From NCBI GenBank assembly GCA_033853355.1, contig JAWOLP010000003.1:1-62010 (forward strand): 62,010 nucleotides of DNA, given 5' to 3'. Position numbers and translations under genes: made by a program. Below are positions 50,612 through 51,099 of the stretch, one piece after another. Position 1 is the stretch's first letter, and every line of letters starts with the position of its first letter. This stretch comes from Candidatus Micrarchaeia archaeon (GTDB taxonomy: Archaea > Micrarchaeota > Micrarchaeia > Anstonellales > Bilamarchaeaceae). The notes beneath the pieces are model-generated. The model ran no database searches. It was not told the origin of the DNA and saw only the letters and a list, made by a program, of their open reading frames with translations.

Positions 50612-50684
50612 TGGGCCCGCGCGGGATCGAACCGCGAATCTCCACTGTGTGAGAGTGGCGTCTTAACCATTCGACTACGGGCCC
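50612..50684 (-). tRNA. tRNA-Val (anticodon CAC)
   Basis: The reverse complement folds as a cloverleaf: GGGCCCG-UA-GUCG..AGAC-G-CCACU-CUCACAC-AGUGG-AGAUU-CGCGG-UUCGAUC-CCGCG-CGGGCCC-A. No CCA is encoded. Confidence 0.9.
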
Positions 50685-50720
50685 TCTAAGAAAAGACATT
50701 CTGAATTTGCAGATAGGCTT

Positions 50721-50730
50721 TTTTAATATA
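50721..50730. promoter_or_regulatory. TATA element between the divergent tRNA-Val and tRNA-Gln genes
   Basis: TTTTAATATA has its centre about 25 nt upstream of the tRNA-Gln 5' end and about 42 nt from the tRNA-Val 5' end. Confidence 0.5.
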
Positions 50731-50750
50731 ACGAGGCACTCCTTCTCCAT

Positions 50751-50954
50751 AGCCCCGTCGTCTAGTCCGCCTTTTGGTAAAAGGCGGCCCAAAACCGGGT
50801 CGTCAAGGCGGCGGAAAACGGTCAAGGATAGGGGACTTTGGTGGGGCCTTTTGACCTCTATGGGCTCTTGGGCAAAACGCCCGCGAAAAGCCTTGAGGAG
50901 ATCAGAGGGCTCCGAAGCCATCCCTTGACACCGGTTCGAATCCGGTCGGGGCTA
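50751..50954 (+). tRNA. tRNA-Gln (anticodon UUG) interrupted by two introns
   Basis: Proposed exons are 50751-50769, 50821-50841 and 50920-50954, giving the 75-nt AGCCCCGUCGUCUAGUCCG|GUCAAGGAUAGGGGACUUUGG|AUCCCUUGACACCGGUUCGAAUCCGGUCGGGGCUA. It has the A1-U72 pair typical of archaeal tRNA-Gln, anticodon loop CUUUGGA and T-loop UUCGAAU. A TATA lies at 50721-50730 and a T7 tract follows directly. The 37/38 intron has a perfect BHB motif; the D-loop insert boundaries are uncertain. Confidence 0.75.
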
Positions 50955-50961
50955 TTTTTTT
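50955..50961 (+). terminator. Oligo-T terminator after tRNA-Gln
   Basis: A T7 tract follows the discriminator base directly. Oligo-T is the known archaeal termination signal. Confidence 0.6.
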
Positions 50962-51099
50962 CAGCTTTTCCTACTGCTTCTCTAAGGTTAAAAGCCGGCG
51001 AAACGTCCTGAGGTAAACCGATTTGTCTATAGGAAGGCAAATCGAGTGCCCAAAAGGCTATTCTGTTAAATTTTAATGCCTTGACCTTGTTGTCCTCTC

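Follow-up and report, generated by a model that had tools for sequence, protein, structure and literature searches.

The tRNA-Gln(UUG) locus

The window analyzed here is a 62,010-nt stretch of DNA from a metagenome-assembled genome (MAG) of the Micrarchaeota, which comprises 1.47 Mb in 74 contigs and is about 76% complete. At 50751-50954 on the forward strand, the strand of all features described below unless stated otherwise, we found a tRNA-Gln(UUG) gene of 204 nt with three exons and two introns. A sequence-only reading of the window had already proposed a tRNA-Gln(UUG) gene interrupted twice at this place, and the evidence bears it out. The ends of the segment form a 7-bp acceptor stem (AGCCCCG at the 5' end with CGGGGCU-A at the 3' end), adjoined by an intact T-arm (ACCGG-UUCGAAU-CCGGU), and after excision of two segments ARAGORN recognizes the full cloverleaf of tRNA-Gln(UUG). 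Both the acceptor stem and the T-arm are formed in the minimum-free-energy structure of the unspliced 204 nt, which folds at -99.3 kcal/mol (z = -4.3 against shuffled controls).

Exon 1 (50751-50765) contains the 5' strand of the acceptor stem (AGCCCCG), U8, C9, the 5' strand of the D-stem (GUCU), A14 and G15. We compared 15 Gln genes, namely the window gene, its paralog in the same genome and 13 genes from other species of the genus, after searching 60 related genomes; exon 1 has the same sequence in 14 of the 15, the intron-less gene L020 deviating at position 9. Exon 2 (50819-50841) continues with CGGUCAA, the 3' strand of the D-stem (GGAU), A26, the 5' strand of the anticodon stem (GGGGA) and C32 U33 U34 U35 G36 G37. 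Exon 3 (50920-50954) supplies A38, the 3' strand of the anticodon stem (UCCCU), the variable loop, the T-arm, the 3' strand of the acceptor stem (CGGGGCU) and the discriminator A73. The CCA is not encoded at the 3' end of the gene. The A1-U72 pair and A73 of the spliced product fit an archaeal tRNA-Gln.

A TATA-like box, TTTTTTAATATAA (50719-50731), has its midpoint some 25 nt before tRNA position 1, and its position and composition suggest an archaeal promoter. Directly after the discriminator A50954 comes a run of seven T (50955-50961), which is likely to be the transcription stop. Both signals were read from the sequence. Immediately downstream of this terminator, at 50961-51058, lies a dispersed repeat (...CTAAGGTTAAAAGCCGGCGAAACGTCCTGAGGTAAACC...AGGAAGGCAAAT...) with at least eight related copies in the genome at 79-88% identity. 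Several of these stand just downstream of other tRNA genes (C20:4089, C53:4406, C65, C67, C9, C38 and C64), and the repeat contains TATA-like and SD-like strings.

Neither ARAGORN in its default mode nor Rfam at the gathering threshold reported the Gln gene; the only tRNA gene they returned here was the neighboring tRNA-Val(CAC). The Rfam tRNA model gives the Gln gene just 24 bits, confined to its 3' half (50908-50954). The tRNA-Val(CAC) gene (50612-50684, reverse strand) points away from the Gln gene, with 66 nt between the two, and is intron-less. It scores 67 bits on Rfam and is among the few uninterrupted tRNA genes of the genome.

The spliced 73-nt product shares 70 of its 73 positions with the intron-less ortholog L020, a 73-nt tRNA-Gln(UUG) that itself scores 66.6 bits on Rfam RF00005, and two of the three differences are a compensatory pair (G29-C41 against U29-A41). 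A BLAST search of the assembly with the gene found a single Gln paralog, tRNA-Gln(CUG) at C61:1028-1150; its D-loop contains a homologous intron of 50 nt, and there is none at its anticodon. No second Gln(UUG) copy, of the kind the sequence-only reading had suggested looking for, was found in this search of the roughly 76%-complete assembly; because the assembly is incomplete, another such gene could exist. The segment 50751-50954 is a real and almost certainly functional tRNA-Gln(UUG) gene with two introns of the endonuclease type.

The anticodon-loop intron

Intron 2 (50842-50919) is 78 nt long, lies at position 37/38 and folds into a rod-like helix. It had been described as a canonical intron with a strict hBHBh' motif, and we agree with that description base for base. 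The central helix consists of C50836-G50917, U50837-A50916, U50838-A50915 and U50839-G50914. It lies between two 3-nt bulges, G50840 G50841|U50842 and C50918 C50919|A50920, and is flanked by both h and h', as the strict motif demands. Our BHB check gave 4/4 central pairs, an h of 7 bp and an h' of 12 bp for cuts at 50841/50842 and 50919/50920. The outer helix, for which at least 8 bp had been claimed, runs the full 12 bp from G50843-C50913 through A50854-U50902.

Among the other Gln genes of the genus, six have homologous introns at 37/38, with 3-4/4 central pairs, h of 6-7 and h' of 7-12. A consensus fold of six Gln introns of similar length (the window gene and five others) is again a rod, in which five pairs show compensatory changes. 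The length of 78 nt, earlier thought long for a tRNA intron, is unexceptional in this genome, in which other tRNA genes carry insertions totaling about 130-190 nt. Inspection by eye for a C/D-box guide RNA inside intron 2 showed no RUGAUGA box.

Borders of the D-loop intron

Intron 1 is best placed at 50766-50818 (53 nt), in the D-loop between positions 15 and 16, where it has a relaxed BHB. The D-loop insertion had been taken for a second intron that would need such a motif, and in this the sequence-only reading was right: a strict BHB does not fit, the 9-bp hairpin reported at 50767-50787 is present, the site is empty in four Gln genes of sister species, and the relaxed motif forms with 3/4 central pairs and an h of 3. 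Its borders fared differently. They were drawn between AGUCCG and GUCAA, so that about 51 nt would be removed and a 75-nt product left.

Four Gln genes without a D-loop intron (L020, L008, L009 and L011) all read GTCTAG|CGGTCAAGGAT, or GUCUAG|CGGUCAAGGAU in the RNA, and have a D-loop of nine nucleotides, AGCGGUCAA. The 15/16 site is empty in these 4 of the 15 Gln genes and filled in the other 11, which read GTCTAG, then the insertion, then (C/T)GGTCAAGGAT. The empty-site sequence in sister species therefore places intron 1 at 50766-50818, between G15 and C16, with a product of 73 nt. One of the four, L011 (a Gln(CUG) gene from genome G036), carries an additional insertion of about 32 nt after GGATA (around 26/27) along with its 37/38 intron.

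Borders other than 15/16 would leave the gene the same and change the tRNA, with 51 nt removed and a 75-nt product that has an 11-nt D-loop. They come in two versions. In the earlier one, an exon ending in AGUC, AGUCC or AGUCCG is joined to CGGUCAA, GGUCAA or GUCAA, respectively; in the other, the register is shifted by one base on each side, giving an intron at 50767-50817 (AGU|...|ACGG). The junction reads AGCGGUCAA with the 15/16 borders and AGUCCGGUCAA or AGUACGGUCAA with the alternatives. ARAGORN accepts the 75-nt product as tRNA-Gln(UUG), and the tRNA-Glu of this genome has a D-loop of exactly AGUCCGGUCAA, the very loop proposed for Gln, so this lineage can accommodate a D-loop of 11 nt. 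The shifted register also forms 3/4 central pairs, with an h of 4 and a clean AAA bulge, so that its 3' bulge is as good as that of the 15/16 borders or cleaner. Against these points, the earlier borders allow only 1-2/4 central pairs, and the four insertion-free Gln genes have the 9-nt loop. Further, the 15/16 borders follow a pairing rule (described below) that yields 4/4 helices in at least ten D-loop introns of several tRNA types; applied to tRNA-Val(GAC) of the same genome, where the central helix is 4/4, it predicts a product with the D-loop length of the intron-less Val(CAC) paralog. We consider other borders unlikely as a whole. The borders of the sequence-only reading were rejected on BHB geometry and the empty-site sequence and appear to be wrong; intron 1 is probably best placed at 15/16, with 53 nt removed and a 73-nt tRNA left.

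A proposed relaxed motif built by the intron tail

With the 15/16 borders, the central helix of intron 1 has 3/4 pairs with a G-A mismatch. It is formed by GGAA (50813-50816), near the 3' end of the intron, with the 5' strand of the D-stem, GUCU (50760-50763). The last six nucleotides of the intron, GGAA+AA (50813-50818), are thus a host-specific tail in which GGAA provides the central helix and AA, with C50819, the 3' bulge, a clean three nucleotides (A50817 A50818|C50819). The short h consists of C9-G, U8-G and G7-U, and h' is offset from the bulge by one base. In the minimum-free-energy structure computed for the 5' part of the precursor, the central helix forms together with a G50765-C50812 pair, h' and an inner stem; here 50767-50773 pairs with 50805-50811 in a 7-bp intron helix, and 50783-50790 with 50797-50804 in an inner stem of 8 bp. 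This predicted fold puts the 5' cut within an internal loop that is small and asymmetric. The fold competent for splicing has a competitor in the palindromic hairpin of intron 1.

A strict BHB is not formed by intron 1; the relaxed motif is present, yet 63 of 880 arbitrary site pairs in this sequence (7%) pass an equally loose filter. Because the relaxed motif is not rare by chance and the shifted register scores similarly, the support for the borders is comparative and not statistical.

The comparative support extends beyond this gene. In all 11 filled Gln sites the intron ends in a tetranucleotide that pairs with GUCU at three or more of four positions, followed by two nucleotides; in 4 of the 11 all four positions pair. 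The tetranucleotides (GGAA, GGAU, GGAC, AGGC, UGGC, CGGC, GGGG and UGAU) belong to several unrelated intron types. D-loop introns of tRNA-Val obey the same rule, GUCG being matched by CGAC+AA in four genomes and the Val(GAC) gene of this genome having the tail UGAU+UC. In tRNAs with a GCUC stem the tail at 15/16 is GAGC or GGGU. Since the pairing rule holds in Gln, Val and GCUC-stem tRNAs alike, the 3' end of an intron at 15/16 mimics the 3' strand of the D-stem.

We also considered a triple-helix reading, based on an exact mirror pair formed by AAAAGGCGG (50779-50787) and GGCGGAAAA (50810-50818). The mirror is lost in the C61 paralog and in the orthologs. This reading was not adopted, because the central helix and the bulge explain the GGAA+AA tail.

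Repeat families in the tRNA introns

Enumeration of all relaxed-BHB deletions, each then submitted to ARAGORN in intron mode, produced too many false cloverleaves. We instead combined ortholog comparison with a motif-free scan, which looks for a T-arm with a matching acceptor strand upstream. The scan delimited 28 plausible tRNA genes in the genome, of which only four are 90 nt or shorter; ARAGORN adds tRNA-His and, possibly, tRNA-Asp to the uninterrupted genes. Some 80% of the tRNA genes that could be detected are thus interrupted by insertions.

The hairpin of intron 1 had been treated as an oddity of this one D-loop. It is instead the hallmark of a repeat family found in most tRNA introns of the genome. 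We call the repeated unit module A; its copy in the Gln gene (50767-50795) consists of the hairpin CCGCCUUUU-GGU-AAAAGGCGG (50767-50787) followed by CCCAAAAC (50788-50795). The layout is a GC-rich arm of 4-5 nt, U4-5, a 3-nt loop, A4-5 and the complementary arm, then CCCAAAAC. The arms vary between copies (GCGCC, CCGCC, GCACC, CUACC, GCCC and others) yet stay complementary. Some 30 copies are present in the genome in either orientation, in the D-loops, anticodon loops and T-loops of many tRNAs.

About six copies lie in non-tRNA spacers, and the sites outside tRNA genes include positions after gene stops. One is in the 120-nt spacer between gyrB and gyrA, where module A heads an element of about 90 nt (C38:37330-37420; locus L133, about 415-533) that fills the spacer right up to the SD and ATG of gyrA. 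An arrangement like this one is seen at C64:33879, upstream of a gene that by eye resembles adenylosuccinate synthetase. An Rfam E-value scan of 14 loci, made for known ncRNAs at the non-tRNA copies, found tRNAs only. Module A also occurs right behind the discriminator of tRNA-Gly (GGTCGCA|TCCGCC...) at C45:38021-38049 and C26:11601-11620, as well as in L062 and L129; this arrangement recurs in other Micrarchaeota genomes, and the module could be a 3' trailer element there. By eye, a further locus, C22:9762-10222 (reverse strand; L142), looks like a gene for tRNA-Cys(GCA) with two introns: one of the module-A kind following the anticodon, and a long one of about 150 nt in the T-loop.

In a sample of public genomes we collected 111 exact copies of module A, all but two from Micrarchaeota-type records, including Bilamarchaeum and Bilamarchaeaceae. 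Inside delimited tRNA genes there were 33 in forward and 33 in reverse orientation, and tRNA-like flanks surround many of the other 45 as well. A bacterial bin, uncultured Ruminococcaceae bacterium UMGS1591 (L025 and L072), yielded two exact matches to the 28-nt pattern of the module; these could be chance hairpins or mis-binned contigs.

Similarity between introns extends past the hairpin. Introns of Glu, Lys and other tRNAs share 93-97% identity with the first 30-35 nt of intron 1. An 84% identity over 50 nt links bases 17-64 of the Gln gene to a portion of an intron on C74, whose host tRNA gene (Leu by eye) has the module both after the D-loop and after the anticodon. The final bases of the Gln and C74 introns differ, each set pairing with its host's own four bases upstream of the cut. 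A shared core with differing, host-pairing ends makes the intron family look like a common core plus a host-adapted tail. In reverse-oriented copies at 37/38 (Asn and Tyr) it is the 3' arm of the hairpin that pairs with positions 32-35, and the arms are changed to match.

Intron 2 has a family of its own. Its core, GGGCAAAACGCCCGCGAAAAGCCYUGAGG, reappears on C41, within an intron of a tRNA gene called Pro by the intron mode of ARAGORN, whose isotype calls for interrupted genes are unreliable. The core is also found outside delimited tRNA genes (C9 and C74:25156), and looser versions occur in introns of three tRNA genes (C25, C46 and C61:8125). Related GCGAAA...UGAGG motifs are present in intergenic regions. 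Within one genome, then, highly similar introns occupy tRNAs of different identity at different positions, and copies stand at non-homologous sites outside tRNA genes in both orientations.

Splicing machinery and proposed pathway

The genome encodes an EndA of 391 aa (on C65). It is a three-unit epsilon2 enzyme, a type of broad specificity, that matches the endonuclease of ARMAN-2 (structure 4FZ2) over its full length with E = 4.6e-133. In vitro, strict as well as relaxed motifs are substrates of the ARMAN-2 enzyme (PMC3239211). The sequence-only reading had linked the relaxed motif to an endonuclease of broad specificity in a DPANN-type lineage; the genome proves to be that of a Micrarchaeota member with an epsilon2 EndA, and so this expectation held. 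An RtcB ligase is encoded as well (559 bits). The genome thus has a splicing endonuclease and an RNA ligase suited to the task, and excision of both introns restores a canonical cloverleaf of conserved sequence. In addition to the epsilon2 EndA, a 165-aa ORF on C64 (locus L002:1291-1788) shows a weaker match, of 44 bits, to the catalytic domain of splicing endonucleases.

From the structure of the gene, its motifs, its conservation and the presence of both enzymes we infer the following pathway of transcription, cleavage and ligation. The gene would be transcribed as a precursor of about 204 nt containing both introns. The three-unit epsilon2 endonuclease would cut both, and RtcB would join the three exons into a 73-nt tRNA. 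Intron 2 would present a textbook hBHBh' to the endonuclease. In intron 1, the 5' strand of the D-stem (GUCU, positions 10-13) would pair with the GGAA of the intron, a mimic of the 3' strand of the D-stem; the 3' cut would fall in the clean 3-nt bulge AA|C, and the 5' cut, AG|U, in the small asymmetric internal loop beside the intron helix 50767-50773/50805-50811. Both introns would be copies of repeat families, intron 1 combining a conserved core of about 48 nt (the palindromic hairpin, CCCAAAAC and a second stem) with a 6-nt tail adapted to the host site. Very probably, then, 50751-50954 is a working Gln(UUG) gene processed by the epsilon2 EndA and RtcB.

It is most improbable that the locus is a decaying pseudogene, a Gln gene disrupted by two repeat insertions that stay in: standard tRNA finders do miss it, and its inserted sequences come from dispersed families that also occur in non-coding spacers, but its exons match the intron-less ortholog at 70 of 73 positions with two of the differences forming a compensatory stem change, it retains an intact strict BHB at 37/38, signals resembling a promoter and a terminator flank it, it is the sole Gln(UUG) gene in the assembly, at least three further species of the genus (L004, L006 and L014) show this layout with two introns, and with insertions in about 80% of the genome's tRNA genes, all of these cannot be dead.

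Significance of the two introns

As a working gene with two introns, the Gln gene is of the kind expected for its lineage, and its main value is for annotation, many other interrupted tRNA genes of the genome being missed or mis-called by default finders. Because such genes are missed, Micrarchaeota MAGs look tRNA-poor unless introns at 15/16, at 37/38 and in the T-loop are modeled. More notable is the membership of both introns in repeat families, which occupy most of the tRNA genes and have intergenic copies as well.

A possibility that we regard as serious, though somewhat short of probable, is that both introns are copies of small Micrarchaeota-specific hairpin cassettes that are mobile as DNA, insert in either orientation and enter intergenic spacers as well. 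In tRNA genes they would be tolerated through excision by the epsilon2 enzyme once the four bases preceding the insertion site find a pairing partner in a tail of about 6 nt or in one arm of the hairpin. If true, the genus would offer a live system for following the birth of archaeal tRNA introns from mobile DNA between sister species. With about 80% of the tRNA genes interrupted, modules shared among hosts and tails adapted to them, a D-loop site that is empty or differently filled from species to species, and copies outside tRNA genes, the genus should be useful for testing the origin and spread of archaeal tRNA introns.

Comparison with known systems

We found no paper in the open-access literature searched on sequence families of tRNA introns in Micrarchaeota. 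The nearest parallels are three, one of them bacterial.

REP, BIME and REPIN elements are palindromic intergenic repeats of bacteria that are mobilized by RAYT (Y1) transposases. The module resembles them as a short palindromic hairpin in tens of copies, in either orientation, in intergenic and intercistronic spacers, with stems that stay complementary while the sequence varies between copies. It differs in that most copies lie within tRNA genes as parts of introns, and in that no target-site duplication was seen at the Gln D-loop site when filled and empty sites were compared. Mobilization by a REP/RAYT system was considered and rejected: a search for a Y1 transposase (PF01797) gave no match in the roughly 76%-complete assembly.

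ARMAN-2 (Candidatus Micrarchaeum acidiphilum), whose tRNA introns and epsilon2 endonuclease are known from Fujishima et al. 2011 (PMC3239211) and from the structure 4FZ2 (PMC3488258), belongs to the same phylum and has the same three-unit endonuclease (E = 4.6e-133, full length). It has tRNAs with multiple introns and relaxed motifs, and 56% of its tRNA genes are disrupted (PMC3239211), compared with about 80% here. The examples that paper describes are in the T-loop (53/54 and 59/60) and 13-25 nt long, whereas intron 1 is in the D-loop at 15/16 and 53 nt long; the passages searched make no mention of shared intron sequence families. A review's list of non-canonical intron positions (PMC4090602) does not name 15/16, though the list ends in "etc."

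In the Thermoproteales, intron families common to different tRNAs have been described (Fujishima et al. 2010, via PMC4090602). These organisms belong to another phylum and have an alpha2beta2 endonuclease. The palindromic module in both orientations (33 and 33) and its presence in non-tRNA spacers set the present families apart, as we found neither feature reported for the Thermoproteales. There, too, closely similar introns are shared by tRNAs that differ in identity, whether at the canonical position or at non-canonical ones, the BHB is formed at the exon-intron junction, and introns are thought to be gained at the DNA level (PMC4090602).
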